Assembly: GCA_964504535.1 (NCBI GenBank)
Contig: CAZDED010000001.1
Span: forward strand, 101,804-165,803
Direction of reading: 5' to 3'
Origin: an uncultured Gammaproteobacteria bacterium
Lineage (GTDB): Bacteria; Patescibacteriota; Microgenomatia; Levybacterales; GWA1-39-11
DNA length: 64,000 bases
The notes under the pieces are model-generated. The model searched no databases and was not told where the DNA came from. It saw only the letters and a list, made by a program, of their open reading frames with translations. This document shows, piece after piece, positions 22,820 through 55,647 of this stretch. Each line of letters starts with the position of its first letter. The first letter of the stretch is position 1. Position numbers and translations under genes: made by a program.

Positions 22820-22821
22820 TG

Positions 22822-23160
22822 TTATGAACTCTTGTAAAAAATAAGGGCTATAAGTGCAACTGGTATCAATATCAAAAAGACTCCAATTAAAAATTCGATA
22901 AGCAAAAGAAAAATAACAACAAGGAGAGACACTGAGATAAGAACGGACTTGATACACATCCCAAAAATAATGGAAAACAAGACCAATCCTTGCCTATATT
23001 CATTCTTAAGAGGTTTGAAGAACGTTTTAATAAGAAGAGGAAGGGACAGTAAAGAAGCTACATACCGGTTCAGATCAATGAAGAAATTAAGCAATCCTCC
23101 GAGAACATCCCTATACCAAAAAGTAATTAAATAAAATGGGTAATAGATAAAGGCAAGCAT
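22822..23160 (-). CDS. Small 3-TM membrane protein of unknown function, immediately upstream of the membrane-anchored Clp paralog (2-nt gap).
   Basis: The 112-aa product has three hydrophobic helices. Its TAA stop at 22822-22824 is followed 2 nt later by the Clp ATG. Confidence 0.35.
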   Translation of the reverse strand: MLAFIYYPFYLITFWYRDVLGGLLNFFIDLNRYVASLLSLPLLIKTFFKPLKNEYRQGLVLFSIIFGMCIKSVLISVSLLVVIFLLLIEFLIGVFLILIPVALIALIFYKSS

Positions 23161-26065: not shown

Positions 26066-26156
26066 CATGCATCATCTAATAGAAAATAGACAGAAGGCAA
26101 TAGACAGAAGTACTGGAAACAAAAAAAATAATCTAATGTCTAATGTCTTTTTTCTA

Positions 26157-26636
26157 ATGTCTTCTAACCGTGGCCTGACATTAATAGAGCTGCTTCTTGT
26201 TATAGGAATTCTTTCTATTCTTTTTGCGATAGGCATCGTTAGTCTTACCAATATCAGAGTTATTTCCGGTAACAATAGTGCAAGTGTTGTCCTAATTTCT
26301 GACCTCAAAACTCAACAAATAAAGGCAATGACCGGAGATACTGAAGGGCGTGGGGTTCCTGATAATTATGGTGTCAAAATCCTATCAAATAGATATATTC
26401 TGTTTCATGGAATTACATATAACCCACTAGACACATCAAATTTTTCAGTACCGGTAGACAATGGATATATACTGAGTACAACATTCCCCAACAGTACAAT
26501 ACTCTTTGCGTCAGAAAGTGGTCAGTTGGTCGGATTTGTTCCTAACCAAAATACAATCGCTCTAACAAGCACACCGTCTGGGCAAGTCAAAACCATCCAA
26601 TTCAATGCTTATGGAACAGTTACAAATATTAATTAA
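26157..26636 (+). CDS. Prepilin-type pseudopilin / minor pilin (GspH/FimT-like).
   Basis: It has a class III signal (MSSNRG|LTLIELLLVIGILSILFAIGIV). The ORF-track start at 26067 adds 30 residues that do not look like a leader. Confidence 0.65.
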   Translation: MSSNRGLTLIELLLVIGILSILFAIGIVSLTNIRVISGNNSASVVLISDLKTQQIKAMTGDTEGRGVPDNYGVKILSNRYILFHGITYNPLDTSNFSVPVDNGYILSTTFPNSTILFASESGQLVGFVPNQNTIALTSTPSGQVKTIQFNAYGTVTNIN

Positions 26637-29586: not shown

Positions 29587-30155
29587 TTTTTTTTAAACAA
29601 AAAATAATAGTTATTAGTCAAAAGTTATTAGTTATTAAAAAAAAACTACCAGCTACTAACTACCAGCTACTAACTTCTAAACGTGGGTTCACTCTCGTCG
29701 AACTCCTTATTTACATGGGGCTTCTAACAGTTTTGATTCTAATATTTACTGACATATTCACTTCAATAATTGATAATCAATTAAGCTCAAGAAACACATC
29801 AAATGTTGCTGATGATGGACGCTATATTTACTCACGATTCATCTATGATGTAGGGCGGGCACAAGCAATTACACAGCCTTCAACCTATGGCAGTTCTTCT
29901 GCAGTACTTGATCTTACAATCGGTGGACAAAACTATAGTTACTCTCTTCTAAATAATAATCTTGTTGTGACAAGCCCGGCAGGGGCATATGCCCTTAATG
30001 GGTATGGGTCATCAATATCGGGATTACTATTCACCAAGGTAGGGACAACAAGCGCAAAAAGCACTGTTCAGATTAATTTCACAGTAAAGGGGGTCGTGAC
30101 AAGCAGGGGAATAAAAGATCAACAGATATTCCAAACTACAGCCGGACTACGATGA
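29583..30155 (+). CDS. Prepilin-type minor pilin (PilW/GspJ-like).
   Basis: KRG|FTLVELLIYMGLLTVLILIF is a pilin N-terminus with E+5. From the only in-frame ATG the leader is unusually long (35 aa). Confidence 0.6.
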   Translation: MIFFKQKIIVISQKLLVIKKKLPATNYQLLTSKRGFTLVELLIYMGLLTVLILIFTDIFTSIIDNQLSSRNTSNVADDGRYIYSRFIYDVGRAQAITQPSTYGSSSAVLDLTIGGQNYSYSLLNNNLVVTSPAGAYALNGYGSSISGLLFTKVGTTSAKSTVQINFTVKGVVTSRGIKDQQIFQTTAGLR

Positions 30156-30535
30156 AAATATCACCTACAAATCAACAAGGACAAACACTAATTATTCTTC
30201 TCATTTATATGGTTATTGCTATTATCGTAACAACCGCTTCAATTGCCCTTGTAATCAATAGCTCTCGAGGTACAGATAAATTATACCAAGGCGCAAATTC
30301 TTTAGATATTGCAGAAAGTGGAGCCGAAACTGCTATGATTAAATTATTAAGAGATCCCAACTACATTGGCGAGACAGTGACAGTCGGAAATGGACAAGCG
30401 GTAATAACGGTAAATGGCACCAATCCTAAAATAGTAGTCTCAAAAGGAACTCTTAATAACTTTACGAGAACAATTCAAGTGATTGTTGATACAAGTAATA
30501 ATGTGTTAACAGCTACATCCTGGAAAGAAATCTGA
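30152..30535 (+). CDS. PilX/GspK-like minor pilin that lacks Glu+5.
   Basis: After QQGQ|TLIILLIYMVIAIIVTTASIAL comes ANSLDIAESGAETAM, which matches the QA..AEAG.E.A motif of PilX-type pseudopilins. Confidence 0.5.
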   Translation: MKISPTNQQGQTLIILLIYMVIAIIVTTASIALVINSSRGTDKLYQGANSLDIAESGAETAMIKLLRDPNYIGETVTVGNGQAVITVNGTNPKIVVSKGTLNNFTRTIQVIVDTSNNVLTATSWKEI

Positions 30536-30536
30536 T

Positions 30537-31229
30537 ATGGAAAATGTAAAAAAACTACCAGCAATACTATATTTAGATAAAAATGGATTTTACTTTTATG
30601 AGGAGGGGTTTCCTAGTGTTGTAAGTCTTGCGTTCCTTGCTACATCCGTAAAAGATATGGATGTAATAAATGGCGCTTCGATTATGACTCAGGTTAAGTC
30701 ATTTATTGACCAATATAAAATACCCCCAGCGATAATAAATATCATTGTTTCACCAAATATCACATTTGAGAAGGACTTTGTAGACCTTACATCAGAGGCT
30801 TTGGAGGAAAAAACAAAAAATTTTGTTGATACGATCCCTTTCGAAAGTGTCATGAGCAAAAGGTACCCAATTGATAAAGGTGTCAAGGGCATCGGATGGA
30901 ATGAAGAACTCTATTTAGAATTAAAGATGAGTTTTGAAAAAAATTCTTTTATAGTTGACCAGGTGATACCATACCAACTTCTGGGCTCTGACCAGACCCT
31001 CATCCAGAATTTTACCCAAGAAAATGCAGCACAACTACTAAGACGAATGGATCATCTTAAGCAATTTACCATGCTAACTGTTTTAAAAGAAAAACCACAA
31101 GTAACTCAAAATGCTGATGATAAAAAGTCATCAAAACCAAAACAGAGCAAAACCAGACTGTATGTCATGGGTGGAATATTTGTGATTCTTTTCATTATTC
31201 TTGGATACATGCTTCTCAATCAAAAATAG
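30537..31229 (+). CDS. Hypothetical protein with a C-terminal TM anchor inside the pilus operon.
   Basis: The 230-aa product has a single C-terminal TM (LYVMGGIFVILFIILGYMLL) and no recognisable pilin N-terminus or ATPase motif. Confidence 0.35.
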   Translation: MENVKKLPAILYLDKNGFYFYEEGFPSVVSLAFLATSVKDMDVINGASIMTQVKSFIDQYKIPPAIINIIVSPNITFEKDFVDLTSEALEEKTKNFVDTIPFESVMSKRYPIDKGVKGIGWNEELYLELKMSFEKNSFIVDQVIPYQLLGSDQTLIQNFTQENAAQLLRRMDHLKQFTMLTVLKEKPQVTQNADDKKSSKPKQSKTRLYVMGGIFVILFIILGYMLLNQK

Positions 31230-31344
31230 ATTTTGATATATTCAGGTTCAAAATACCCTACGAACAATAAATTTTCGATGTTTGCGACCAATTAAAAATT
31301 GGTGCTTGACAAGATTTTTTGGATATGATTAAGTGAATACAGAT

Positions 31345-31827
31345 ATGAAAACTGCCCAGTTGAAAAATCAAAAAGGTTTCACACTCATCGAGTTACTCGT
31401 TGTTATCGGTATACTCGCTGTTCTTCTTGCAATCACTCTTATAGCTATCAATCCAGCAAGACAATTTGCTCAAGCAAATAATACTAAAAGATCATCAGAT
31501 GTTAATGCAATATTAAATGCTGTTGGTCAATATGCTGCAGATAACCATGGATCACTTCCTGCTGGACTTACTGCTAATTGTTCTGCTGCTGCTTGCGACA
31601 TCACGGGAGTTGTCGCTGCAGGAAATATTGATTTGTGTCCAGCGCTTGTAACTTCATACCTTGCTGCTCTTCCAGTAGATCCTTTAACTAATAATGGAAC
31701 TCCAGTATCTACTTGCAATGCAACATATGTAGCAGGTTACACAATTCAAGTAAGCGCAGCTGACAATAGAGTCACCGTTACAGCTCCTGCAGCAGAACTT
31801 AGCCAAGTTATATCAGTAACCAGATAA
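31345..31827 (+). CDS. pilA: Type IV major pilin (PilA-like).
   Basis: MKTAQLKNQKG|FTLIELLVVIGILAVLLAITLIAI is a canonical type IVa prepilin with F+1 and E+5. A C-terminal Cys pair (CSAAAC...C...C) would form the disulfide loop. I chose the ATG at 31345 over the GTG at 31333. Confidence 0.8.
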   Translation: MKTAQLKNQKGFTLIELLVVIGILAVLLAITLIAINPARQFAQANNTKRSSDVNAILNAVGQYAADNHGSLPAGLTANCSAAACDITGVVAAGNIDLCPALVTSYLAALPVDPLTNNGTPVSTCNATYVAGYTIQVSAADNRVTVTAPAAELSQVISVTR

Positions 31828-31845: not shown

Positions 31846-31872
31846 TAAAACACACTGCGGTGTGTTTTTTTG
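31846..31872. terminator. Bidirectional Rho-independent terminator between pilA (+) and dnaJ (-).
   Basis: The stem aaacacac (31848-31855) / gtgtgttt (31860-31867) has a tgcg loop. It is flanked by an A-run upstream and a T-run downstream. Confidence 0.6.
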
Positions 31873-31880
31873 TGGGTAAA

Positions 31881-32753
31881 TTAGAACCAGTGCTTCTTTT
31901 TTGATTCACGGTCAAACTCTTCAAGAAGTTCCTTTTGTTTTGATGAGAGTTTTGTTGGGATTTCAATTTCAACTCTTACATAATGATCTCCATGTTGCGA
32001 ACTATTTACATGCTTTACGCCTTTACCTTTTATTCTAATAAGAGTTCCTGGCTGAGTCCCTTGCGGAATCTTGAGTTTAACTTTTCCAACTACTGTCTCT
32101 ACCTCTTTGATACTCCCGACAGCAGCCTCCACCATCGTTAACTTGAGATCGGAAACGATATCGTATCCTTCTCTATGAAATTTACTATTTGAAGAAACTG
32201 AAATCACAATATCAAAATCTGAAAACTGTATTCTTGATCCATCATTGACTCCCGCAGGAACCTTTATGTCTTTCCTTGTCCCGTCTAATGAAACGGATTT
32301 TGTTGTTCCTTTAACTGCCTCCATAAAATCGATTCTGAGTGAGTACGAAGGTTTTCTTCTTCCGAAAGGTGTCCCTCCCCCCCCACCAAAAAATTGCTCA
32401 AAAATGTCGAAGGGGTCTGAAAAACCACCAAAATCCTGTGCGCCACCATTTGTTGAATATGAATAAGTAAATGGACCCTGTTGGCCGCCAAACCCTCCAA
32501 ATGGTCCCCCAGCACCCGATCCACGGCCACCATTTTCAAATGAAGCACTCCCGAATTGATCATATTGCTTTCTTTTTTGATCATTACCCAATATCTCGTA
32601 TGCTTGGTTTATTTCCTTAAATTTCTCTTCTGCTTCTTTTGACTTATTTTTGTCAGGATGATACTGCACCGCAAGTTTTCTATAAGCGCTTTTTAGCTCT
32701 GCAGCAGTTGCAGTCTTACTGACACCCAAAACTTTATAAAGATCATTACTCAT
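31881..32753 (-). CDS. dnaJ: DnaJ-family co-chaperone of type B, with a J domain and a G/F region but no zinc-finger domain.
   Basis: The J domain is [32 protein letters not shown] Gly/Phe-rich region ([21 protein letters not shown]) follows, and C-terminal beta-sandwich domains. There are no CxxCxGxG repeats. Confidence 0.8.
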
Positions 32754-32800: not shown

Positions 32801-35074
32801 TCATTGTGGGGTACATTTGAGAGGACATAATTGAATCTTCTTTCCAGACGCCACGCACGTCGGATCTGGGGTACACGTATAATATTGCTCTGGCGTCGGA
32901 GTTGGAGTACCAAGAGGTTCGAATTTACCACTTCCGCCTGGAACCGTCGTTGTTGTTGGAATGAGGGTCGGGGTTGGTGTTGGGGCAATAATAGTAGGTT
33001 GTAAAACAACTGGAGTTGGTGTTGTTTGAAGAGGATTTAGGGCAATAAATAATTTCATCGTCGTTGGTGAACCACTTGGTATAGTAAATGTTCCTTGTCC
33101 AACTATAGAACCTGATACTTTAACAACCAGAGTATACCCACCAGAAGGAACAGTATGAAAAGCGAAGTTACCGCTCGTATCCGTTGTAGCACTTGAATTC
33201 AGTGCTCCAGTTGTCGTAATTTGTGCACCCGAAAATCCTGATTCTCCTGGATCAAAAGTAGAATTACTATTCGTATCAGTATATACCGTACCTATGATTT
33301 CATTTATGATTACCCCTGGAGTAGATCCACCCGGAACTGGACTTGATGTAACAGTGGGAGTAATTGATGACGTTGGATTTGGCGAAGGGTTACCGGATGT
33401 TGCACAGGTTGCAGGTTGCAAGGTTGCTCCAGAACATGTAGGACTTTTTGAAACTCCAAGTGGTTGCTGGTCGATAAGTGTTGCTTGCATTGCTCGGTTA
33501 ACATTGTCACACTCTGTTGAGGAGGCACCATATATGTCACTACAAGCTTGTAAAAAAGAGGTGTATGCGTCTTTGAAATTTGAGGTTGCTGATAAATATT
33601 TTGTTAATGCCAAATATATAATTGGGTAACTTTTAATTCTCCCAATACCGCTCACAGAACACCCGTTAAAATTTCCCCCATCTGTCATAAGATAAAAAGT
33701 TTTATTTATTATTCCGCTATTTATGTGTACTCCACCAAAATCTGCAGCAGTACAAGCAAACGATGAAAGCTTGTCAGGCTGATCTCTTAATAATGGATTA
33801 CTCATTGATCTCAGCGGTACGGGAAGACCAGATGAAGGTGGCAAATTTTCTCCTAATTCCCAATTGTTATCCATCGCACTTCCAAAAATATCAGATACTG
33901 CCTCATTAAGAGCACCTGACTCATTTGAATATATAAGCCCAGCAGTTTCACCAGTTATAGCATGTGTCAATTCGTGACCAGTTACATCAAGAACCACAAG
34001 ACCAGTACAAAAAACCATTTCACTGCCATTCCATTGAGCATTTGGACAACTGTTTCTTGGGGCTCCTCCGGTACCAATATTTGGAGGAACTCTAACATAC
34101 CCATTATAGGAAGCACCCCTATTGTCATAACTGTCTCTATTGAAGTTGAGCTTGAAATAATCATATGCCGTATAAAAATAGTTATATAGATTATCAGACT
34201 CTGTATCTCCAGAAGCAGCTGATCCTTCAGCCCTCACCTTGGGGCATGATGTAGTACCACTACAATTAAAGATGTTTCTATTTAGTAGGTCTCTTGTTTG
34301 AGACTCCGAATAAATAAGTTTTCCATCACTAAGGCTTATGACATATTCTGTCCGAAAAATTGTTGGTTTTCCTTCTGACTTTATCATGATTCTCAATGCA
34401 ATTTGATTTTTTGGATTATCTGAAATACCAAGGAGTTGCTCATTTATATAAATTTTCTTTGCTCCCTCAACCTCAAGATTTGCAGTTTTACTTTCTCCTT
34501 TTGCTATATCTAATGCAAGTTGGATAGCTTTGGATTCCTGGATATTTTGAGAAGTGACTTCTTTTGTTGAAGAAACATTCCCGCTTATGGAATATACTTC
34601 ACTTTCATTTTTAATATGAACTGCAACGGATGACTTATAAATAGGAATGCCATTTAGAGATTGGGTAAAGAAATAATGTTCATTATTGATCACTATCCCG
34701 TTTTTCTTTAGATAACTATCATCCTTGTCTTGAGCTTGACGGGTAGGATTGGCATTTTTCGAAAAACCATCCGGGAACAATGGACCTGAATTTCCAATAG
34801 ATGGATTTTTTTGAATAAACTCTTTAGCTGCATCCAATCCTTTTTTATTCGATTTATAAAGATAAGTGTTTGTCGTGTTGATGGAAAATATTGTTCTTCC
34901 GGTATCTCTTGTTATACTTGAGTAAGGCGTTATTTCTAATGCATCAGTATTCGATTTCCCATTGAGGTATGTTATCAAAAAGCTAGCAAAAAAAACTACA
35001 ATAATAATTACTAATGCTACTAGTTTTGAATGCTTTTTGATTATTTTTTTGGGGGCTCTCAAGAACTCACTCAT
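32801..35074 (-). CDS. Membrane-anchored secreted zinc metalloprotease of family M4 (thermolysin-like), with a Pro/Thr-rich C-terminal region.
   Basis: It has an N-terminal TM (KLVALVIIIVVFFASFLITYL) and a propeptide-like region. The catalytic motif is HELTHAITGETAGLIYSNESGALNEAVSDIFG, i.e. HExxH plus the NEAxSD third zinc ligand. A C-terminal PT-rich linker ends in CTPDPTCVASGKKIQLCPLKCTPQ. Confidence 0.8.
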   Translation of the reverse strand: MSEFLRAPKKIIKKHSKLVALVIIIVVFFASFLITYLNGKSNTDALEITPYSSITRDTGRTIFSINTTNTYLYKSNKKGLDAAKEFIQKNPSIGNSGPLFPDGFSKNANPTRQAQDKDDSYLKKNGIVINNEHYFFTQSLNGIPIYKSSVAVHIKNESEVYSISGNVSSTKEVTSQNIQESKAIQLALDIAKGESKTANLEVEGAKKIYINEQLLGISDNPKNQIALRIMIKSEGKPTIFRTEYVISLSDGKLIYSESQTRDLLNRNIFNCSGTTSCPKVRAEGSAASGDTESDNLYNYFYTAYDYFKLNFNRDSYDNRGASYNGYVRVPPNIGTGGAPRNSCPNAQWNGSEMVFCTGLVVLDVTGHELTHAITGETAGLIYSNESGALNEAVSDIFGSAMDNNWELGENLPPSSGLPVPLRSMSNPLLRDQPDKLSSFACTAADFGGVHINSGIINKTFYLMTDGGNFNGCSVSGIGRIKSYPIIYLALTKYLSATSNFKDAYTSFLQACSDIYGASSTECDNVNRAMQATLIDQQPLGVSKSPTCSGATLQPATCATSGNPSPNPTSSITPTVTSSPVPGGSTPGVIINEIIGTVYTDTNSNSTFDPGESGFSGAQITTTGALNSSATTDTSGNFAFHTVPSGGYTLVVKVSGSIVGQGTFTIPSGSPTTMKLFIALNPLQTTPTPVVLQPTIIAPTPTPTLIPTTTTVPGGSGKFEPLGTPTPTPEQYYTCTPDPTCVASGKKIQLCPLKCTPQ

Positions 35075-35598
35075 TGTTTTTTAATTGACACCTGGGCAGT
35101 TGAATCGGTAGAGTTTTCCAGAGTTACTTCCAACCCATACTCAATGATTTTATCAGTACATTTCCCGGCAATACCCCCACAGGAATAACTTAAAATTTTT
35201 CTTATATCATCTTTTACTAAAGCGATGTCGGTTGTTGCAATACAGTCAAAACATTTCGAATCGGGTAATATTGCTCCTACATATTCTATAGTCACGCTCG
35301 TTGTAGGGACAGTGACGACCTTTCCTTTTATAAGGCTCATTTTAATCGGGGCAGTAGAGGAAGATATTGTGGGAACCGGGGTAATTACTGGAGCTTTCAC
35401 GCCCGGAGTAACCGTTGGAACCACATTGGAGTTATTGCTGTAGATAAAAAATGATCCAAAAATTATAACAAGCGTAATACATACTATGATCGCAATAAGA
35501 ATTATTTTTTTTGTATTTTTTTGACTTGTAGGACTGATCATAGCATTTTGATCAACAACAATGGGAGATTGTGATTGATCAAGTATATTATTTTCCAT
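35071..35598 (-). CDS. Small membrane-anchored extracytoplasmic Cys-containing protein, translationally coupled (ATGA overlap) to the M4 protease gene.
   Basis: It has a TM (KIILIAIIVCITLVIIFGSFFIY), a PT-rich linker and a ~90-aa domain with four Cys (CFDC ... SCGGIAGKC). Confidence 0.4.
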   Translation of the reverse strand: MENNILDQSQSPIVVDQNAMISPTSQKNTKKIILIAIIVCITLVIIFGSFFIYSNNSNVVPTVTPGVKAPVITPVPTISSSTAPIKMSLIKGKVVTVPTTSVTIEYVGAILPDSKCFDCIATTDIALVKDDIRKILSYSCGGIAGKCTDKIIEYGLEVTLENSTDSTAQVSIKKQ

Positions 35599-35609
35599 AC
35601 AAAACTTAT

Positions 35610-38468
35610 TTACTGGATTGCAGTTGTAGGATCTTTTTGCATCTGTGTGCCATCAGATCCTAAGGTTGGCATCGGGTTTGGAGCAGTTGACCCTCCTCCT
35701 ATTCCATCAGCATTAAATGGATTGAACGGCGGAGGTGCCATAGGGTTTTGGATAGGTGTATAAGGATCTACAATCATACTGTTTGTGGGTGTTGGAACCG
35801 GTTGCGTAACACCATTTGCTGGGGGGAAACCTGGTTGTTGTTGAATTGTTGTCCCGTCTGGCGCAACTGGATTTGCCCCAGGAACAGCTGCAGGCGTTGC
35901 ACTTTTAATAAATGTGTACTCACCCTTTGCCATATCGTAATCAATTTTTACGGTATCTCCAACGACAAACTTCTGTCCAATGATTTGAATACTTATTGGA
36001 TTCTCAATGACATTTTGAATAAGTCGTCTCAATGGTCTTGCTCCATAGACTGGGTCAAAACCTTCACCACCAAGCATCTCAAGCGCTTTATCACTAACCT
36101 CTAAATTAAACCCTTGTTCCTTTAAGAGTTTGGCAGTATGACCAATATTAATTTTTGCTATCAATTTCATGTCTTGCTTTCTTAACGGTTTGAAAATAAC
36201 TACTCCATCAAATCTGTTAACAAGCTCCGGTCTAAAGAATTTTGTCAATTCATCCATAAGCTTTTTAGATAAATCTGCAAATACCTTTTGCATATGGGGA
36301 TCTTGATTTGCAACTTTTGGAACCGCAGCAACCGCTCCATTCGCACTAACAACTGAAGCTGTAGTTGTAGCTGTAACCGGTGCTGCTGTAACTGGTTGTG
36401 GCTCTACACCAGGAATTGGAATTTCAGTTGCTCCTATAGGCGCTGTTCCTGTTAGAAGGGTAGTTGTGGATACTGCCTCTGCCTTGGCGTTTGCATCTCC
36501 TTGCTGCTTTGCATTTACTAATGCTTCTTGTATAAGTCCACTTCCAATATTTGATGTTGCAATAACGATTGTATTTTTAAAAGAAATTGTATTTCCTTTG
36601 TTGTCAGTCAGTCTTCCATCCTCAAGGAGCTGAAGAAGAATATTAAACACGTCCGGATGAGCTTTTTCAACCTCATCAAGCAGTACTATTGAATAAGGCT
36701 TTGCACGCACTGCCTCAGTTAATTGACCTCCTTCTTCGTAACCCACATATCCTGGGGGCGCACCTATGAGTTTTGCAACTTCGTGCTTTTCCATATATTC
36801 AGACATATCGAGTCTGATCATCGCATCATCTTTTCCAAATAATATTTCGGCCAAAGTTTTTGCAAGCTCTGTCTTTCCAACTCCTGTTGGTCCTAAGAAA
36901 ATAAATGACGCAATAGGCCTATTGGCGCTGGCAAGACCAATTCTTCCACGCCTAACTGCTTCGGCAACAGCTGAAACCGCCTCCTCTTGATCAATAAGTC
37001 TTTTATGGATGAGGTCCTCAAGCTGTAGCAACTTTTTGCCTTCATCCTCAGTAAGTCTTGTTATAGGAATTCCTGTCCAGTCAGAAACTACTTTCTCTAT
37101 GTCTGCTCTTGATACATTCGAATCTTGCCTTTGACCCTCAGCCTTTTTTAGCTTAACCTCAGCAGCAGCTTCGTCAAGAAGGTCAATCGCCTTGTCGGGA
37201 AGGTACCGCTCTCCAACATATTTCTTAGACAATGTAACAGAAAATTTTATAGCATCAGGAGTCAGAACAACCTCATGAAACTTTTCGTATTTTTCCTTTA
37301 ATACTTCAAGCATTTTCATTGCCGTCTCCTCATTTGGTTCATCAACGATTACAGACTGAAAACGCCTCTGAAATGCCTTGTCTTTCTCAAAATACTTTCG
37401 ATATTCGGCTGTCGTTGTGGTTCCGATCAATTGTAATTGACCGCGAGCAAGATATGGTTTTATTATGTTTGAAGCATCCATGGCTCCTCCACCTTCTTCT
37501 CCTGCCCCTATCAATGTGTGGATTTCATCAATAAAGAGAAGGATCTTCCCGCCACTGACCTGAACTTCTTTTATGACATTTTTGAGTCTTTCTTCAAATT
37601 CTCCCCGGTGAGATGCTCCGGCAATAAGGGCAGCCAAATCAAGCTGGATAATCTTTTTATCTTTCAACTGATCAGGAACTGTTCCTGCAATTATTTTTTG
37701 AGCAAGTCCTTCAATAACAGCAGTCTTACCTACCCCTGCTTCTCCAATAATGATGGGGTTATTTTTTGTGCGCCTCAACAGAATATGAACAAGTCTCTCT
37801 ATTTCCTTATCGCGACCAATCACCGGATCCAATTTCCCATCTTTTGCTTCGTTGGTAAGATCAATCCCAAATTGCTCAAGAACAGATTTTTTTCCGGCTG
37901 CCTGAAAGGTAGGATTTTTAGAAAGATTTTTTTCAAGACCCTCCTTCTGTACACCTTTGGAGGAGAGGTATTGAGATGTAGTATCAGAATTAAAAAGTGA
38001 CAAAAGGATATCTTCAGGAGTTATAAAACTAGATCCTCTATTTTTAGCCATGGTAAATGCATCATCAAATATTTTTTGAGAAACAGGGGAAAGAACGGGT
38101 GGGCCTTCAAATGTTCCTGGAGTTTGTTTTTGCTGCAGCTCACGAGCCAGATCCCCTGCATTAACAGTAAACTCTTGAAGTGTCTTATATACTTCTTTGT
38201 CATAAAGAAGCCCTAGCAAAACAATATCGGGCTCAATGAGGGCTAGTTTTGCTTTTTTTGCTTCATTTTGAGCTTGTTGAAGAACTTGATTTGCCCGTGC
38301 GTCTAAATGCGTTAGACTCTCCACATTTTGTCTTTTTACGGGATCCATGCCAGCAGGCTGTATAGGACTTTCCACAACCTGTTGTGGTTGATTAGCATTT
38401 TGAGCTACTTGATCTCCAGGCCCTTCACCTTCTCCGTATTTTTTTGTACTAAATAAATTTCCAAACAT
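35610..38468 (-). CDS. ClpB/ClpC-type Hsp100 AAA+ chaperone ATPase with two intact NBDs, an insertion in NBD2 and a long Pro-rich C-terminal tail.
   Basis: It has Clp_N repeats. NBD1 has IIIGEAGVGKTA and LLFIDEIHTLIGAG. NBD2 has FIFLGPTGVGKTE and IVLLDEVEKAHPDVFNILLQLLEDGRLTD. A ~75-aa Ala/Thr/Pro-rich insertion follows NBD2 Walker B. The C-terminal ~110 aa are P/G/Q-rich. Confidence 0.85.
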   Translation of the reverse strand: MFGNLFSTKKYGEGEGPGDQVAQNANQPQQVVESPIQPAGMDPVKRQNVESLTHLDARANQVLQQAQNEAKKAKLALIEPDIVLLGLLYDKEVYKTLQEFTVNAGDLARELQQKQTPGTFEGPPVLSPVSQKIFDDAFTMAKNRGSSFITPEDILLSLFNSDTTSQYLSSKGVQKEGLEKNLSKNPTFQAAGKKSVLEQFGIDLTNEAKDGKLDPVIGRDKEIERLVHILLRRTKNNPIIIGEAGVGKTAVIEGLAQKIIAGTVPDQLKDKKIIQLDLAALIAGASHRGEFEERLKNVIKEVQVSGGKILLFIDEIHTLIGAGEEGGGAMDASNIIKPYLARGQLQLIGTTTTAEYRKYFEKDKAFQRRFQSVIVDEPNEETAMKMLEVLKEKYEKFHEVVLTPDAIKFSVTLSKKYVGERYLPDKAIDLLDEAAAEVKLKKAEGQRQDSNVSRADIEKVVSDWTGIPITRLTEDEGKKLLQLEDLIHKRLIDQEEAVSAVAEAVRRGRIGLASANRPIASFIFLGPTGVGKTELAKTLAEILFGKDDAMIRLDMSEYMEKHEVAKLIGAPPGYVGYEEGGQLTEAVRAKPYSIVLLDEVEKAHPDVFNILLQLLEDGRLTDNKGNTISFKNTIVIATSNIGSGLIQEALVNAKQQGDANAKAEAVSTTTLLTGTAPIGATEIPIPGVEPQPVTAAPVTATTTASVVSANGAVAAVPKVANQDPHMQKVFADLSKKLMDELTKFFRPELVNRFDGVVIFKPLRKQDMKLIAKINIGHTAKLLKEQGFNLEVSDKALEMLGGEGFDPVYGARPLRRLIQNVIENPISIQIIGQKFVVGDTVKIDYDMAKGEYTFIKSATPAAVPGANPVAPDGTTIQQQPGFPPANGVTQPVPTPTNSMIVDPYTPIQNPMAPPPFNPFNADGIGGGSTAPNPMPTLGSDGTQMQKDPTTAIQ

Positions 38469-38493: not shown

Positions 38494-40617
38494 CTAAACT
38501 CCAGGAGCACCTCCAGGCTGACTTCCCGGCTCATCTTTTGGCTCGTCAGTTGGCAATTCTTGTTGCATTGCCATCTCGGCATGTCCAGCCTTACTTACAT
38601 CATCAGCTCTATCAACCATTGTGTCTTCCTCTTCTTTCTTTTGATCTACGGCTGTTAATACAGACTTGGCAGCTTCCATTTTTGCCTTAAGATATGAGAT
38701 AACTTCAGTCTTTGAGAATCCACCCAAAAGTAAGAATGGCAAGATATTTGCTACCCGCTCCATTCCCCTATCAACATTATCCTGGTTCTCAGAACTGAGA
38801 AGATTGATGGTCTCAGTTATGTTTTCTACATCTTGCTGTATAAATGAATGCTTGTCTGATGGAATTCCGTTTGGTCCGACTGGAGTTTCCATATTTTGAT
38901 AATTTTCTTGCCACATTTTCTTAACATCTTCATATTCTTCTATGCTTACCTGCTGAACCTGATTCGTTTGTGGCAACTTTACATCCTTAATATTTGCGAG
39001 TGATTCTTTTTTCTGTCCTGGTAATACTGCCTTGGTTTTGTTATTTACTTCTTCAGATACTTTAGAAGCAGATAAAACGTTGTCGGCCAATTTGTCTCCT
39101 TGTTTTTGTTGAGCAACAAGCTTTTCTTTAATTGTTGTGAATTTCTCCCTATCATGTGTGGCGGTCGCAGTGGTCGGCTTTGAGATCTTTTCGAGTGTTT
39201 CATGGAACTTGTTTACCTCGGTTCTTGAAACACTATCATGCTTCATCATTGATGTCTCATATCGCGCGATGTCTCTCATCTTAGGAACAGTAAGATTTGC
39301 AAGGCGCAATACGTCACGAGTCTCCCTTACAGATTGCAGACTACTTAGTGATGCCCGCTCCAATGTACTTGTTGTTCTTGAGGCAGGAATTTCCATCGAA
39401 CGTTTGTTGAAGAATGGAATGCTCTTAGCAAGTCCAAATGGTGAAGGTTGCTGCGGTGGCTGGCCCGGGGCAGGGGACGGTCCACCATACGCCTTATTAA
39501 ACCAGGAGTTTGAGGTAATTTTTTTAACAACCGGGCTTTCTCCAATTGACATCCCGGAAAGATAATCAAGAAATATTTGGAGCAATAAGAATGGCAAGAG
39601 AATTACCACCCAAAGCATGAGAAGAGCGACAACATACAGGGCAAAGGTATCATTAACATTTACCGAATTATCCAATCCAATTTGCTGGCCAGGCCCTCCA
39701 AGCAAGATATTTATAGCGGTCTTGTACCTGACTTGATCAGGAACATTTTTTGAAAAATCAAAAAACATCGGTATCCCACTTCTCCAAACATTCACAAGAC
39801 CGTGAAGAAATAGCGCAAACAATGGAGCGTATAGTAGCCAACGGAAAAACTCTCCTATCCAAATTTTTGCTGTATTTTTGACGGGTCGGAAAAATAAAAG
39901 GAGCGGAAATATTGGAGAAACGATAATAAAAAACCACAAGATGATTTTTCTTATGATAAGAAGTCCTGTCATGACATAGTAGGTTATTGCCGTAAGTTTT
40001 ACTAAAAGAAGAGATATAAATGCGGACTCGTCATATTCTATACCGACCTTCCTAAAACCAAGGAAATCGTATTGGAACGCAATATAGAGAAGATCTCTTG
40101 AATCAATATTTCGATTTGTTCCATCTAGGGGATCTTTTATGTTGAGGAAAAATCCTTGTAAAACATCCGTCGCTTGGTACAGAAACCTGATAATAGCAAA
40201 AGACAGTACAACAAGAACTACAATAAAGATGAAACGGGGAATAAATTTCATAATTGTCAGATTTTGACCGCGGGTTATGATCATTACAAAGGCAGATCCC
40301 AAAACAAATAGAGCCAAAAGTACAAAAACGATATTTCTAACAAGTGCCCAAAATGTTTGAATAGGATTTTCACCCGTAGAAGGCAATACAATCCATTTAT
40401 AATTTTGACTTTGAAGTGTCCAATCAAGAAAATTGTTGGCTCGGGTTGCAGTTTTACCGACAAAGGTAACTTCCTGATCTTTTACCCATCCTGTTGTGAC
40501 ATCAGGGGCTGTTGTAGGAACTGCTTGTGCATGGGTGGGACGACTAAAAGAGAAAAAGCCAACAAAAAGTATTGAAAATAAAAGGACTTTGATAAATCTG
40601 GGCAGTTTGTTATGCAT
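38494..40617 (-). CDS. Polytopic membrane protein (signal peptide, ~6 TM, then a ~380-aa hydrophilic coiled-coil/acidic C-terminal domain) with a VirB6/TrbL-like architecture. The likely start is MHNKLPRF at 40617.
   Basis: MHNKLPRFIKVLLFSILFVGFFSFSRPTHAQA is a signal peptide. Multiple long hydrophobic helices lie between residues ~120 and 400. The C-terminal half is charged, K/E/Q-rich, and ends in a DEPKDEPGSQPGGAPGV tail. Its ATG lies 1 nt after the stop of the upstream small gene. Confidence 0.5.
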   Translation of the reverse strand: MHNKLPRFIKVLLFSILFVGFFSFSRPTHAQAVPTTAPDVTTGWVKDQEVTFVGKTATRANNFLDWTLQSQNYKWIVLPSTGENPIQTFWALVRNIVFVLLALFVLGSAFVMIITRGQNLTIMKFIPRFIFIVVLVVLSFAIIRFLYQATDVLQGFFLNIKDPLDGTNRNIDSRDLLYIAFQYDFLGFRKVGIEYDESAFISLLLVKLTAITYYVMTGLLIIRKIILWFFIIVSPIFPLLLFFRPVKNTAKIWIGEFFRWLLYAPLFALFLHGLVNVWRSGIPMFFDFSKNVPDQVRYKTAINILLGGPGQQIGLDNSVNVNDTFALYVVALLMLWVVILLPFLLLQIFLDYLSGMSIGESPVVKKITSNSWFNKAYGGPSPAPGQPPQQPSPFGLAKSIPFFNKRSMEIPASRTTSTLERASLSSLQSVRETRDVLRLANLTVPKMRDIARYETSMMKHDSVSRTEVNKFHETLEKISKPTTATATHDREKFTTIKEKLVAQQKQGDKLADNVLSASKVSEEVNNKTKAVLPGQKKESLANIKDVKLPQTNQVQQVSIEEYEDVKKMWQENYQNMETPVGPNGIPSDKHSFIQQDVENITETINLLSSENQDNVDRGMERVANILPFLLLGGFSKTEVISYLKAKMEAAKSVLTAVDQKKEEEDTMVDRADDVSKAGHAEMAMQQELPTDEPKDEPGSQPGGAPGV

Positions 40618-40618
40618 A

Positions 40619-40936
40619 TCAAGAAAATCCTGGAATATGTAGAATATTCGTCGCGACAACCTGAATAAATACAAACCCAAAAATCGCAAGCAAAATCCCA
40701 ATGATGGCGTATGTTATATATGATTTACCTGTTTGAAGCTGCGCAGGATCCCCCCGAGATATAAGAATGTGGTATCCACCTATAATAAGAAAAAGTAATC
40801 CAACCAAGCCAATGAGTCCAAGCCCCCACGTATAAAATTTGCCTACAAAACCCGCAGGAGAACTAGGAAGACATCCAAAATCTGTCAGTATTTCGTTAGG
40901 CAAGCAGGTTAGAGCCATACTCATTAATACTAGCAT
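40619..40936 (-). CDS. Small (105 aa) two-helix membrane protein resembling the TrbC/VirB2-type (T4SS pilin-like) fold.
   Basis: An N-terminal hydrophobic, signal-like segment is followed by GKFYTWGLGLIGLVGLLFLIIGGYHILISRGDPAQLQTGKSYITYAIIGILLAIFGFVFIQVVATNIL. This is two hydrophobic helices flanking a short polar loop, as in VirB2/TrbC pilins. It lies 34 nt downstream of dnaK. Confidence 0.4.
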   Translation of the reverse strand: MLVLMSMALTCLPNEILTDFGCLPSSPAGFVGKFYTWGLGLIGLVGLLFLIIGGYHILISRGDPAQLQTGKSYITYAIIGILLAIFGFVFIQVVATNILHIPGFS

Positions 40937-40970: not shown

Positions 40971-42896
40971 TTAACTAACTACTTCGCCTTCTTCGGCGTC
41001 TTCTTTCTTTGAGGAACTGTCGTCGGTGTTGTCGTCCGATTTTGGCTCTTCCGAACCTGTATTTTTATGTTCTTCCGTACCCTGTCCACTGTCTCCTGTC
41101 CCTTGATTCGCATACATCTTTTCTCCGACCTTTGAGATTTTCTCTGAGAGATCCTTTGTTTTTGATTCGATCTCATCCTTGTCTTCTCCATCTTTTACCT
41201 TTTTTAACTCGGAAATTGCCTCTTCTACTTCCTTTTTGTCCGCCTCTTCAATTTTCCCTTCCATATCTTTCATTGATTTTTCTGCCGTAAAGATGAGATT
41301 ATCAGCACTATTTTTTACCTCAATAAGTTCTTTCTTTTTCGCATCCTCATCTGCATGCATTTCTGCATCCTGGGTCATCTTTTTGATTTCATCATCTGTA
41401 AGCCCAGTTGAACCTGTTATTTTGATGCTTTGCTCTTTCCCAGTTGCCTTATCTTTTGCTGTTACAGACAAGATTCCTGACGCATCGATGTCAAAAGTTA
41501 CCTCAACTTGCGGTACTCCCCGAGGTGCAGGTGGAATTCCATCCAATATAAATCGTCCGAGTGACTTGTTGTCGTTTGCCATTGGACGCTCTCCCTGAAC
41601 AACATTAATTTCGACTTGTGTTTGATTATCAGCTGCTGTTGAGAATACTTGTGATTTTTTACTTGGAATTGTTGTATTTTTCTCAATTAATGGAGTTGCA
41701 ACTCCACCCATTGTTTCGATTCCAAGCGTCAAAGGTGTAACGTCTAACAAAAGCACATCTTTCACTTCTCCACCCAGAACCCCAGCCTGTACTGCAGCAC
41801 CAACTGCAACAACTTCGTCCGGATTTACTGATTTATTTGGTTCTTTGCCAAAGAATTTTGATACTTCCTCAATTATTTTTGGCATTCTCGTCATACCTCC
41901 AACAAGAATTACCTCATCAATTCCTGATGTTTCAACCTTAGCATCTTTTAAAGCCTGCTTGACTGGTCCAAATGATTTTTCAACAAGGGGGGAAACCAAT
42001 TGCTCCAACTTTGATCGTGGGATTTTAACCGTTAAGTGAAGTGGTCCATTTGGTCCTTGAGTTATAAATGGTTGATTGATCTCAGCTTCCATTGATGAAG
42101 ATAACTCAATTTTTGCTTTCTCAGCAGACTCTTTAAGTCTTTGTAGAGCTTGAGGATCGGACCGAAGATCAATATTATTGTCCTTCTTAAATTCATCTGC
42201 TAGGTAATCGATAAGTACTTGATCAAAATCATCTCCACCAAGATGAGTGTCTCCGTTCGTTGCTTTTACCTCATATACTCCTTCTCCCAATTCGAGGACT
42301 GAAATATCAAATGTTCCTCCTCCAAGATCATAAACTGCTACTGTATGTGCATGTTTTTTGTCTAACCCATAAGCTAGTGCTGCTGCTGTTGGTTCGTTAA
42401 CGATTCGGAGTACTTCAAGTCCAGCAATTTCTCCAGCCTGTTTTGTGGCTTGTCTTTGGGCATCGTCAAAATATGCAGGAACGGTAATAACAGCTTGAGT
42501 TATTTTGTCTCCCAAATAATCCTCGGCATCCTTTTTTAGTTTTTGAAGAATTTGTGCAGAAATTTCTTGTGGAGTAAATGTTTTACCATCAACCTCAACA
42601 ACAGCCATGCCTTCGCGCCCAGACTTTACATCGTATGGCAAAAGCTTAAGGTCTTTTTGGACAGACTCGTCTTTCAATTTTCGACCCATAAGTCTTTTTA
42701 CTGAAAAGACAATCTTTTTTGGTTTTAGAACCATCTGACGCTTTGCAACATCACCAACAACTCTCTCGATTGGATCGACAACCGAAGGAGTAGTGTTTCT
42801 TCCTTCAGATGAAAAGATGACTTTTGGAGAGCCTCCCTCCATTACAGCCATACATGAATTTGTTGTTCCTAAATCTATTCCTATAATTTTTCCCAT
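40971..42896 (-). CDS. dnaK: Molecular chaperone DnaK (Hsp70).
   Basis: It begins [22 protein letters not shown] and contains [13 protein letters not shown] and [13 protein letters not shown]. It has an acidic, Gly-poor C-terminal tail. Confidence 0.95.
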
Positions 42897-42947: not shown

Positions 42948-43454
42948 TTAATTCTTAAGGTCTTCCCCGTTACCAACTTTTACCTGTGCTGGACGGATCA
43001 GTCTTCCATTTATCATAAATCCCGGTCTTACTTCTTCAATTACGGTGTCTTTGGCTCCAGGTACCACTTCTATCACTTCCATTGAGTCTGCATTATATTT
43101 TACATTCTCACACTGTATCTTATCAATACCATTTTGTTGTAAGACTTCAAGTATTCTTCCGATTGTCAATTTTACACTCTCATCTGTTGTATATTTTCCT
43201 GCCAAAAAGAGTGTATCAAATGCAGGCAAAAGTGCTTCTATTAATTGCTTGTTTGCAAATTTGACTGCCTCACTTCTTTCATCAAAACTTCTTCTTTCTA
43301 AGTTTCTATAGTCTGCTACTGCCCGTTTTAGTTGCTCATCAAGTTCTTGTATCTTTACATCCCGTTCGTCTACCTCTTCGGTAATCTCCTCAATAATTTC
43401 TTCTTCGTCCTTTTTATCTTGTTTTATCTTATTATTATCCATCGCACTAATCAC
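42948..43454 (-). CDS. grpE: Nucleotide exchange factor GrpE.
   Basis: It has an acidic N-terminus and a coiled-coil (DYRNLERRSFDERSEAVKFANKQLIEALLPAFDTL). The C-terminal beta domain reads EVVPGAKDTVIEEVRPGFMINGRLIRPAQVKV. Confidence 0.9.
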   Translation of the reverse strand: MISAMDNNKIKQDKKDEEEIIEEITEEVDERDVKIQELDEQLKRAVADYRNLERRSFDERSEAVKFANKQLIEALLPAFDTLFLAGKYTTDESVKLTIGRILEVLQQNGIDKIQCENVKYNADSMEVIEVVPGAKDTVIEEVRPGFMINGRLIRPAQVKVGNGEDLKN

Positions 43455-43480: not shown

Positions 43481-44203
43481 TTACCATCCTGCAACTTCTT
43501 CTATTAAAGAGCCGTAGTATCTTACTAGTGGTACGATATTTTCGTATCGAAGTCTTGCAGGCCCGATAACTCCAATAGTACCATCATGATTTCCTCGCGT
43601 GTGGAATTTAGAAAACACAAAACTGTATGGTTTGAATAGTTCTAATTCCAAATCTTCTCCCAAAATTACTGAAAATTTCTCATGAATATTTCCAAAAATC
43701 GTATCAAAATAAGTTGAATTATCTAATAAATTTAATAAATTCTTCGTGACATCGATGTCATAAAATTCTGGCATATCCAAAATGTGAGAGTATCCAGAAC
43801 AGTAAAAGTCACCCATGTCATTTCTCGCAACCGCCAATGTTCCTGTTTTATCAGCTAGTCTCTGAGTTGCTGTACGCATGAATTCTCCTTCTTTTTCCCG
43901 TACATCCCAAACCTTTTCTTTTGCTTCAACCTCCTCAGCAACTGAAAGATCCTTCTCTTTCATTAATTCATTGACGTACAGTTTCATCGCTTTTGAAGTC
44001 GGAATACGGCCAGCCGATGTATGAGGTTTTGCAAGATATCCCTTTTTGACCATTACGGCCATCTCGTTCCTTATCGTAGCGGGGCTCACACCTACATCAT
44101 ACTTTTTCTCCAATGTTTCGGAGCCGACTGGGTTTGCCGTATCGATATATTCTTTAACTATCTGCTTTAATATCTCGATTTGTCTCTGTGTTAAATCGTA
44201 CAT
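43481..44203 (-). CDS. hrcA: Heat-inducible transcription repressor HrcA (short form).
   Basis: It has an N-terminal winged helix (LTQRQIEILKQIVKEYIDTANPVGSETLEKKYDVGVSPATIRNEMAVMVKKGYL), and a CIRCE operator lies immediately upstream. Confidence 0.85.
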   Translation of the reverse strand: MYDLTQRQIEILKQIVKEYIDTANPVGSETLEKKYDVGVSPATIRNEMAVMVKKGYLAKPHTSAGRIPTSKAMKLYVNELMKEKDLSVAEEVEAKEKVWDVREKEGEFMRTATQRLADKTGTLAVARNDMGDFYCSGYSHILDMPEFYDIDVTKNLLNLLDNSTYFDTIFGNIHEKFSVILGEDLELELFKPYSFVFSKFHTRGNHDGTIGVIGPARLRYENIVPLVRYYGSLIEEVAGW

Positions 44204-44268: not shown

Positions 44269-44295
44269 TTAGCAATACTATATCACGAGTGCTAA
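44269..44295. promoter_or_regulatory. CIRCE operator (HrcA binding site): TTAGCAATA-N9-GAGTGCTAA.
   Basis: The half-sites are at 44269-44277 (7 of 9 matches to TTAGCACTC) and 44287-44295 (a perfect GAGTGCTAA), separated by a 9-nt spacer. It lies 66 nt upstream of the hrcA ATG. Confidence 0.8.
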
Positions 44296-44305
44296 ATTAT
44301 GTCAA
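44277..44305 (-). promoter_or_regulatory. Sigma-A-type promoter for the hrcA operon that overlaps CIRCE (TTGACA-17-TATAGT).
   Basis: On the minus strand the -35 TTGACA is at 44305-44300 and the -10 TATAGT at 44282-44277, with a 17-nt spacer. CIRCE occupies the spacer and the -10, which is the classic arrangement. Confidence 0.5.
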
Positions 44306-46618: not shown

Positions 46619-46742
46619 CTCCTTTACATTATAATGATGAACTATTCAAGTTCAAATCATTCAATTTCTATCAGTATAGCACCGAGAGTGCTAATTTGTC
46701 AATACTTCCTATCTCTGGTATGATTGGTTTACTTTAACCCCT

Positions 46743-53919: not shown

Positions 53920-55605
<1,686 letters not shown>

Positions 55606-55647
55606 CTATCTTTTCGTGCTTCGAATTTAGTGCTTAGTGCTTCCACC

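Follow-up and report, generated by a model that had tools for sequence, protein, structure and literature searches.

What is a gene for an exported zinc protease doing in the middle of a bacterial heat-shock operon, and what does the small membrane protein encoded immediately ahead of it do to the protease? These questions are raised by a locus in a 64,000-nucleotide (nt) stretch of contig CAZDED010000001.1 (assembly GCA_964504535.1; hereafter the window), where a gene for a thermolysin-like (M4) metalloprotease overlaps a gene for a 175-amino-acid (aa) membrane-tethered protein (hereafter the partner), and where both genes lie between clp and dnaJ in a string that is headed by hrcA. We consider it likely that the partner is dedicated to binding the M4 protease and, more tentatively, we favor the reading that it is a membrane-tethered inhibitor or latency factor of the secreted pre-pro enzyme. 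The features of the gene pair are the following.

35071..35598, minus strand: partner gene, 175 aa, encoding an N-tail (residues 1-31), a transmembrane (TM) segment (~32-54), a Pro/Thr/Val linker (55-84) and an all-beta domain (85-175)
35158..35253, minus strand: Cys-bearing loops of the partner, P-x-x-K-C116-F-D118-C119 and C140-G-G-I-A-G-K-C147, which hold the only (near-)invariant residues of the family
32801..35074, minus strand: pre-pro M4 (thermolysin-family) zinc metalloprotease, 757 aa
34964..35023, minus strand: N-terminal hydrophobic segment of the protease, ~residues 18-37, behind a Lys/Arg-rich start (read from the sequence, not by a signal-peptide predictor)
34574..34681, minus strand: fungalysin/thermolysin propeptide (FTP) motif, residues 132-167 (Pfam PF07504, 26.9 bits against a cut-off of 21)
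33482..34180, minus strand: catalytic domain, residues 299-531, with HELTH at 33962-33976 and the third zinc ligand, E391 of NEAVSD, at 33902-33904
33053..33289, minus strand: CarboxypepD_reg/SdrD_B-like beta-sandwich, residues 596-674 (Pfam, 30.8 and 29.6 bits, just under the cut-offs)
32804..32875, minus strand: C-terminal four-Cys tail C-TPDPT-C-VASGKKIQL-C-PLK-C-TPQ (pattern C-x5-C-x9-C-x3-C-TPQ)

The protease is assigned to its family by Pfam matches to Peptidase_M4 (PF01447, residues 299-374, 52.3 bits against a gathering threshold of 22.4) and Peptidase_M4_C (PF02868, residues 378-531, 143.5 bits against 24.4), and its residues 287-532 align to thermolysin with E = 5e-48, the catalytic region being ~40% identical. 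Its Glu-zincin motifs, GHELTH (H367, E368, H371) and GALNEAVSD (E391, D395), correspond to thermolysin H142, E143, H146, E166 and D170, and N345, Y382, R422, D445 and H450 are identical to thermolysin N112, Y157, R203, D226 and H231. In the profile alignment, then, all ten thermolysin active-site equivalents are identical, and the five auxiliary catalytic or substrate-binding residues among them are invariant or nearly so across 27 homologs from the candidate phyla radiation (CPR). The active site is thus intact; the open reading frame (ORF), the Pfam profiles and these ten positions bear out the M4 zinc protease with HELTH and NEAVSD motifs that had been read from the DNA, and the broken active site that careful alignment might have revealed did not appear. 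Both FTP and PepSY propeptide profiles were looked for: FTP was found, whereas PepSY was not detected by Pfam at E <= 0.01, and residues ~170-255 could hold a divergent PepSY domain.

The N-terminal hydrophobic segment of the protease would be a signal peptide or a signal anchor, and M4 homologs in loci L015 and L095 have ordinary-looking signal peptides. Because the propeptide comes after this segment, and because characterized M4 enzymes lose their propeptide, the mature enzyme would not be anchored through it; the description of the protease as membrane-anchored in the original prediction could therefore apply to the pre-pro form only. Eight Cys residues of the catalytic domain are invariant across ~58 CPR-type homologs and absent in thermolysin and the Bacillus enzymes. 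The Peptidase_M4 match begins at profile position 71, the N-terminal half of the first domain being divergent. In the long C-terminal extension the beta-sandwich domain is bordered by Pro/Thr-rich linkers, and the four-Cys tail is kept in Levybacteria-type M4 proteins, with a dockerin at that place in other lineages. The named M4 relatives belong to Candidatus Levybacteria (Microgenomates group, Patescibacteria), and the contig itself is found in a public metagenome assembly (ENA ERZ4216102). Taken as a whole, the architecture is that of an ordinary secreted pre-pro M4 enzyme with surface-binding C-terminal modules. We discarded the idea that the four-Cys tail is a general sorting or docking tag, as a regular-expression search of all ORFs of the window and of 100 loci retrieved M4 proteins only. 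Separately, two Levybacteria M4 homologs (P0019 and P0023, ~1100 aa) have no Cys tail but are fused at that place to an aminopeptidase domain of the M28 type (PF04389/PF01546), and such M4-M28 fusions suggest a combined endo- and exopeptidase for amino-acid harvesting.

The partner contains a single hydrophobic segment, modeled as a helix spanning residues 27-54, and the Lys residues on the N-terminal side of this segment imply an N-in, C-out (type II) topology with a cytoplasmic N-tail and an extracytoplasmic domain. Beyond the segment lie C116, C119, C140 and C147, in keeping with the one TM segment and four-Cys extracytoplasmic domain that had been predicted; a fifth Cys, C40, is in the membrane segment. 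A word-indexed search retrieved only 12 close relatives of the partner, whereas ~100 clusters emerged when 1.84 billion representative proteins were searched exhaustively with a profile; the family as a whole comprises ~110 clusters. All have the same architecture, in which a short N-tail is followed by one TM segment, a Pro/Thr linker and an all-beta domain of ~90 aa. Among 63 diverse members only C116, C119, C140, G142 and C147 are invariant, and D118, G141 and G145 are nearly so. The CxDC motif is present in 106 of 111 members, 72 of which also have CGGxxGxC, with 31 members keeping only xGGxxGxx; long forms, of ~290 aa with an extra cohesin-like domain, account for 17 of the 111.

The predicted fold of the partner is confident. 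AlphaFold2, run on the domain alone with 68 sequences, returned eight strands with a pLDDT of 91.9 and a pTM of 0.81, and the model of the full-length protein has the TM helix followed by 8 strands. In the model the conserved loops flank the beta4-beta5 hairpin at the same end, and this order of the strands would make the two loops neighbors at a single pole of the domain. Neither Pfam (E <= 0.01) nor NCBIfam contains a family matching the beta domain, the few sub-threshold matches falling on TM or low-complexity segments; a profile search of all PDB sequences likewise matched only TM or low-complexity segments and nothing in the domain. When the domain model was compared with the PDB using Foldseek there was no match under E = 0.001, the best being an archaeal S-layer domain (TMq 0.47). 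An SMPI-like or other known inhibitor fold was rejected, Foldseek searches of the PDB with the full-length and domain models giving no significant match and only weak ones, to lipocalins, the fatty-acid-binding protein FABP and RseB, with TM scores below 0.35, as was the idea that the partner is a split-off piece of the M4 propeptide, since hhalign of the partner against the M4 profile aligned 11 columns at 25% probability. Nor did Pfam, NCBIfam and the PDB profile search reveal homology to any enzyme family or known foldase; together with the Foldseek result, this speaks against the unrelated enzyme that the partner might have turned out to be. We regard the partner, on the strength of these models and searches, as a member of a new, unannotated, membrane-tethered family that has no significant match in the PDB.

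The TGA stop codon of the partner gene and the ATG start codon of the M4 gene overlap as ATGA at 35071..35074 (minus strand), within aaaaaacaATGAgtgag, as had been predicted, and the two genes are thus translationally coupled. A junction of -4, -1 or 0 nt recurs in 12 further independent loci, such junctions being found in L005-L014, L095, L097-L099 and L101. The overlap and the gene order repeat in independent contigs in which partner identity is as low as 31-47%, which argues that the pairing is not due to chance. A scan of metagenome contigs with the partner alignment yielded 4 loci. In all ten evaluable partner-retrieved loci, that is, those on contigs extending far enough downstream, the M4 gene follows immediately (the window, L005, L006, L007, L010, L097, L098, L099, L101 and L102). 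Loci retrieved with M4 at 35-54% M4 identity also contain a diverged partner, which is upstream of the M4 gene in L011, L013 and L095, upstream as a long form in L103, and downstream, with the order inverted, in L015. As a negative control we scanned genome contigs, from a collection of species-representative genomes, with the M4 alignment: 79 of the 80 loci listed lacked the partner, and none of the 79 non-CPR M4 loci among the matches listed had it. The 80 listed loci encode secreted thermolysin-like rather than protealysin-like types, and Levybacteria are not among the matches listed. The partner tracks the eight-Cys M4 clade. Partner and M4 identities fall in parallel (70/78%, 47/62%, 42/54% and 34/40%).

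A further clue comes from L103, in which a long-form, cohesin-like partner is encoded 109 nt upstream of a dockerin-bearing M4 (P0064, dockerin 35.7 bits); of the long-form partners, P0200 has a weak Pfam Cohesin match (26.4 bits). Cohesin-bearing partners also stand beside the M4 genes of L101, which is truncated, and of L102, which is frameshifted. The cohesin-like partner and dockerin M4 of L103 amount to domain-fusion evidence that points to a physical association of the two proteins at the cell surface. Since the beta domain is retained in the cohesin-bearing long forms, it probably does more than serve as a tether. The earlier suggestion of a specific role for the small protein as partner of the protease, be it inhibitor, chaperone or adaptor, is strengthened by the strict co-occurrence and by this locus. 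In dockerin-type lineages (L095, 4170-5372; L096; L103) we also observed several TM-anchored cohesin and cohesin-plus-dockerin proteins around the M4 gene, surroundings that give these CPR bacteria what looks like a small surface scaffold of the cellulosome kind.

Several observations together argue for an action of the partner on the protease: the two co-occur strictly, their genes are translationally coupled, both proteins are placed outside the cytoplasm, and they diverge in parallel. From these we infer physical binding and inhibition. If the partner is indeed an inhibitor or latency factor, the two proteins would be exported together in a ratio of roughly 1:1, and the tethered beta domain would use its patch of conserved loops to bind the M4 protease at the surface of the membrane. 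The protease would then be kept latent or inhibited near the envelope of the producing cell until it is released or relocated by way of its C-terminal modules, the partner serving for self-protection or latency and so shielding the envelope of the cell that makes it. One may speculate that the invariant Asp between two Cys residues, in a stapled loop, reaches the catalytic zinc, as "switch" residues (Asp or Cys) do in other metalloprotease zymogens. Several observations weigh against inhibition. The partner bears no likeness to any known protease inhibitor, SMPI, AprI/Inh and the staphostatins being absent from the Foldseek top 50, and a second inhibitor is not obviously needed, as M4 propeptides already give latency. 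Residue 117, between the first pair of Cys residues, can be F, Y, V, A, N, T or R, which disfavors a substrate-like P1' reactive site, and the invariant Cys and Gly residues could be purely structural. One eight-Cys M4 protease, P0057 (L096), has no partner on its 13.9-kb contig. Finally, the cohesin-dockerin pairing comes from one locus, L103, where further cohesin-like proteins are encoded, and the matches to the Pfam cohesin profile are weak.

The placement of the pair in a dnaK operon, between clp and dnaJ, was also part of the original prediction, and the surrounding genes support it: hrcA, grpE and dnaK lie upstream, and the string as a whole is hrcA-headed, preceded by a putative operator of the CIRCE (controlling inverted repeat of chaperone expression) type, and conserved among Levybacteria-like relatives. 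Its nine co-directional minus-strand genes, hrcA-grpE-dnaK-pilin-like-TM-clp-partner-M4-dnaJ, run from ~44.3 to 31.8 kb with spacers of -4 to 51 nt. Besides the pair itself, it comprises the following features.

44269..44305, minus strand: sigma-70-like promoter TTGACA-17-TATAGT with a TG extension (promoter match 11/12), under a CIRCE-like inverted repeat TTAGCACTC-N9-TATTGCTAA, upstream of hrcA
43481..44203, minus strand: hrcA, heat-shock repressor, first gene of the string (Pfam HrcA, E = 1e-19)
42948..43454, minus strand: grpE (Pfam GrpE, E = 2e-29)
40971..42896, minus strand: dnaK (Pfam HSP70, 857 bits)
40619..40936, minus strand: small two-TM protein, like a type IV secretion system (T4SS) pilin (VirB2/TrbC-like; Pfam T4SS_pilin, 27.5 bits against a cut-off of 26.6)
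38494..40617, minus strand: polytopic membrane protein, 707 aa (the mechanical ORF reaches 40701; 707 aa are called in public contigs)
35610..38468, minus strand: Hsp100/Clp ATPase ("clpB") with two AAA modules (Pfam Clp_N, AAA, AAA_lid_9, AAA_2, ClpB_D2-small)
31881..32753, minus strand: dnaJ, short form, last gene of the string (Pfam DnaJ, DnaJ_C)
31847..31868, minus strand: terminator-like hairpin and T-run, 13 nt past the dnaJ stop codon

The CIRCE-like operator (44269-44295) has 2 mismatches to TTAGCACTC-N9-GAGTGCTAA, so that 16 of the 18 specified positions agree; the match is unique within the window, against a chance expectation of 0.04, and the operator is also kept upstream of hrcA in L001, L007, L008, L010 and L011, wherever the upstream region is present. 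Because the gaps are 51 nt or shorter, because the same-strand terminator-like sites found within the string all lie inside coding sequences and none is intergenic, and because a terminator-like hairpin follows dnaJ, the partner-M4 pair is probably co-transcribed with the chaperone genes in the Levybacteria-like lineage. We also infer, from gene spacing, that the pair would be co-regulated with the heat-shock genes and induced by heat. Like the dnaK operons of Gram-positive bacteria that are controlled by HrcA and CIRCE, the string begins with hrcA-grpE-dnaK, ends with dnaJ and has a CIRCE-type repeat over its promoter; unlike them it has five additional genes ahead of dnaJ, for the pilin-like protein, the polytopic TM protein, the Clp ATPase, the partner and the M4 protease, inserted behind dnaK. 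Membrane proteins are the products of three of these genes, and a secreted enzyme that of a fourth.

The Clp ATPase of the string lacks the coiled-coil middle domain of ClpB (the alignment skips ~404 to 527 of E. coli ClpB, at query residue ~448) and has an Ala/Thr/Pro/Val-rich, low-complexity insertion of ~80 aa (residues 650-730) at the site where ClpA and ClpC have their ClpP-binding loop; no clear IGF or VGF tripeptide was seen. Given the missing middle domain and the insertion at the ClpP-loop site, this Hsp100 protein may not be a DnaK-dependent disaggregase. Pfam did not detect a zinc-finger domain in the dnaJ product. The pilin-like gene, for which NCBIfam gave a Mbov_0395 pilin-like match under the cut-off, has the same position in all Levybacteria-like loci, and the 707-aa membrane protein, which has no match in Pfam or NCBIfam, is 94% identical in L007 and 44% in L013. 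These two genes (38494-40936, minus strand) lie between dnaK and clp in all Levybacteria-like loci, with identities of 93-94% in L007 and of 62% and 44% in L013.

Other genes of the window may be mentioned here. Upstream of hsp20 (46181-46618, minus strand), at 46668-46694, a TTGACA promoter is followed by TTAGCACTC-TCG-GTGCTA, a CIRCE-like pair of half-sites with a much shorter spacer and 4 mismatches to the full CIRCE, which may represent either another operator of the HrcA type or one of a different kind. At groEL (53920-55953, minus strand; upstream region to 56135) no CIRCE was found at <=3 mismatches upstream of a putative groES, a 101-aa ORF; another inverted repeat, CTGCTAAATTAGCAG, lies there upstream of a TTGACA box. 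Convergent on dnaJ is a type IV pilus-like cluster (23304-31827, plus strand) that encodes PilB-like T2SSE and PilC-like T2SSF proteins, several N-methyl prepilins and a 993-aa protein (26605-29586) with no Pfam match, and whose synteny is retained in L001, L007 and L008. A second, divergent Clp-like ATPase of 828 aa, the first AAA module of which is weak, is encoded nearby (20471-22957, minus strand), and a comparable 798-aa Clp-like gene lies past the M4 gene in L013 (12683-15079), with one 108-aa ORF in between.

How general is the association with heat-shock genes? In all Levybacteria-like loci the five genes from the pilin-like one to M4 (pilin-like, TM, clp, partner, M4) form a block beside hrcA-grpE-dnaK, and the block is kept even in one locus where DnaK is 75% and M4 40% identical, dnaJ there following directly after dnaK. 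Elsewhere the pair has other neighbors: in L095 it lies behind tsf-frr and before an RseP-like M50/PDZ gene directly past the M4 gene, and in L101 and L102 it lies behind a resistance-nodulation-division (RND) transporter gene. The linkage to heat-shock genes is thus specific to the Levybacteria-like lineage and stable within it, and, because the pair is found outside heat-shock operons in other lineages, the partner-M4 pair is the conserved unit.

The two genes also differ from their neighbors in rate. Ratios of nonsynonymous to synonymous substitution (dN/dS, or omega; NG86), which are rough because dS is close to saturation, were 0.125 for the partner and 0.084 for M4 in the comparison with L007, against 0.02-0.04 for dnaK, hrcA, clp and the membrane-protein genes. 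The value for the partner argues that it is a real gene under purifying selection, to which M4 is subject as well, and positive selection on either member of the pair was rejected, as omega is well below 1 for both. The pair changes 3-5x faster at nonsynonymous sites than the neighboring dnaK, hrcA, clp and membrane-protein genes, and M4 is 78% identical against 92-96% for the chaperones. In the same comparison between the window and L007, dS is 0.25 for hrcA and 0.59 for dnaK, with values of 1.3-1.6, or saturation, for the other seven genes of the string; codon bias, or a boundary of recombination within the operon, could account for the difference.

Against this background we weighed other roles for the partner and for the protease, judging each singly and not as members of an exclusive set. 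The partner might be a tethered maturation factor, either a steric chaperone or a thiol-disulfide helper that assists the folding of a Cys-rich M4 protein, much as Lif foldases serve lipases and PrtM serves PrtP. No feature of the family is more conserved than its CxxC-type motif, CxDC (106/111), the M4 clade has 8 invariant Cys residues in its catalytic domain and the Levybacteria type 4 more in its tail, the partner gene precedes the M4 gene and is coupled to it in translation, and the membrane tether would put the domain where proteins are exported. However, the domain is all-beta and not a thioredoxin fold, no likeness to known foldases emerged from Pfam, NCBIfam or the PDB profile search, the M4 protein retains FTP, the normal intramolecular chaperone, 31 members do without the second Cys pair, and the eight-Cys M4 protein of L096 has no partner; we therefore think such a role unlikely. 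Somewhat less probable to us is that the partner is a surface anchor or adaptor only, a scaffoldin-like receptor on whose four-Cys domain the four-Cys tail of the Levybacteria M4 docks. Long partners do carry a cohesin-like domain and adjoin a dockerin-bearing M4 gene (L103), the Cys tail of the Levybacteria type stands where M4 proteins of other lineages have their dockerin, and both proteins have long Pro/Thr linkers. Moreover, among 7 pairs examined a second Cys pair went with a tailed M4 in 5/5 and its absence with a dockerin M4 in 2/2, but this correlation, which involves only two clades, is confounded by phylogeny. The retention of the beta domain where a cohesin is present suggests a separate role, and dockerin M4 proteins with short partners have their own cohesin proteins nearby (L015, L096), so that the partner would not be needed for anchoring there.

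A different proposal concerns the protease itself, namely that it is under heat-shock regulation and performs extracytoplasmic quality control as a functional substitute for HtrA, with the partner as substrate adaptor or regulator; this is compatible with any role of the partner. The pair lies within an hrcA-headed string that has a CIRCE-like operator and internal gaps of <=51 nt, the Clp-partner-M4 linkage is kept at 75% DnaK and 40% M4 identity despite the moved dnaJ, and no HtrA-like gene was found within the window, a weak point given that this is one window of the genome. An HtrA-like role had been put forward in the original prediction, and as stated there it is not upheld: the same pair stands by tsf-frr or an RND transporter gene, outside chaperone operons, in other CPR lineages, the M4 protein evolves much faster than the chaperones, and its propeptide and C-terminal binding modules are those of a secreted nutritional or surface M4 enzyme. 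CPR genomes also often string unrelated genes together, and we hold the proposal to be improbable. HtrA/DegP is, furthermore, a trypsin-fold serine protease with PDZ domains, unlike the window M4, a metalloprotease in which Pfam finds no PDZ, so that the likeness would be functional at most. Least plausible by far is that the partner is a tethered substrate or sensor, its ectodomain cleaved at site 1 by the M4 protease and its N-tail released by an RseP-type protease, as in anti-sigma proteolysis. The type-II topology and a moderately conserved N-tail (MENNxPD...) fit substrates of such regulated intramembrane proteolysis, an RseP-like M50/PDZ gene is directly past the M4 gene in L095, and in Levybacteria a Clp ATPase gene lies ahead of the pair; yet the N-tail, at ~30 low-complexity, variable residues, leaves no room for an anti-sigma domain, the pair has no sigma factor gene next to it, and the M50 neighbor occurs in a single locus.

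The reading that the partner is a tethered inhibitor or latency factor has a functional precedent. In PMC9505478 (citing Chukhontseva et al. 2021), the operon of protealysin (M4; pln-m4in), from Serratia proteamaculans, is described as encoding emfourin, a 1:1 inhibitor that acts at the active-site region, the arrangement is likened to effector-immunity pairs, and protealysin is described as intracellular. As in the window, an M4 gene shares one operon with a gene for a small protein, which makes the two systems functionally analogous and does not imply membership of one family. Emfourin is not known to carry a signal or an anchor, and it is encoded downstream of the protease; the window partner, by contrast, is membrane-tethered, extracytoplasmic and encoded upstream. 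Neither Pfam (E <= 0.01) nor the PDB profile search revealed emfourin homology of the partner, the presence of an emfourin model or chain in these libraries being unverified. A second precedent is AprI/Inh, periplasmic inhibitors of serralysins; these and SMPI of Streptomyces are small, beta-rich, disulfide-containing extracytoplasmic inhibitors of secreted zinc proteases. AprI/Inh, encoded in the operon of its protease, is considered to protect a compartment of the producing cell itself. Both are soluble, AprI targets M10 enzymes, and SMPI is not known to be operon-linked; the partner differs in its TM anchor, shows no detectable similarity to either in sequence or structure, and has neither among the Foldseek PDB matches listed.

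The protease, too, departs from its class. It shares with thermolysin, bacillolysin and aureolysin (MEROPS M4) both Pfam catalytic domains, FTP, and the zinc ligands and catalytic residues, and differs from typical M4 enzymes in its eight extra catalytic-domain Cys residues, the divergent N-terminal half of its first domain, the failure to detect PepSY, its long C-terminal extension (beta-sandwich and four-Cys tail) and the location of its gene in a chaperone operon. The dockerin-ended M4 and the cohesin-like module on a membrane-anchored long partner that are found in related CPR lineages recall cellulosome-type cohesin-dockerin anchoring; Pfam found neither module in the partner and M4 protein of the window.

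What, then, is new? The M4 protease is one more, new member of a well-known family, and there is precedent for an M4 gene that shares its operon with a partner gene; new are the partner family and the conserved insertion of a gene pair for an exported protease and its partner into an HrcA/CIRCE dnaK operon. A literature search on Levybacteria or CPR together with protease, thermolysin or HrcA found nothing relevant. A bolder version of our reading would make the beta domain with its CxDC and CGGxxGxC motifs a new structural class of tethered regulator, inhibitor or obligatory maturation factor, of the eight-Cys M4 clade of CPR, and would have the pair recruited in Levybacteria into the HrcA regulon with an M-domain-less Hsp100 and two membrane proteins, forming a stress-induced module for envelope proteostasis or surface remodeling; we regard this version as improbable.

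The pair is a clean lead that overturns nothing: a sharply defined, testable combination of a well-understood enzyme class with a protein family of ~110 clusters. CPR bacteria (Patescibacteria) are ultra-small and mostly uncultured, many are thought to be epibionts, and to our knowledge little has been established about their processing of protein from outside and the protection of their own cell surface. M4 enzymes are both virulence factors and industrial enzymes, and if the partner is an inhibitor it would represent a new membrane-tethered class of M4 inhibitors; if it is instead a foldase, it would explain how a Cys-rich secreted enzyme matures in CPR organisms. Should transcription confirm it, the placement of the pair behind a Clp ATPase gene in an HrcA/CIRCE operon would be an unusual reach of a very conservative regulon to exported proteins.

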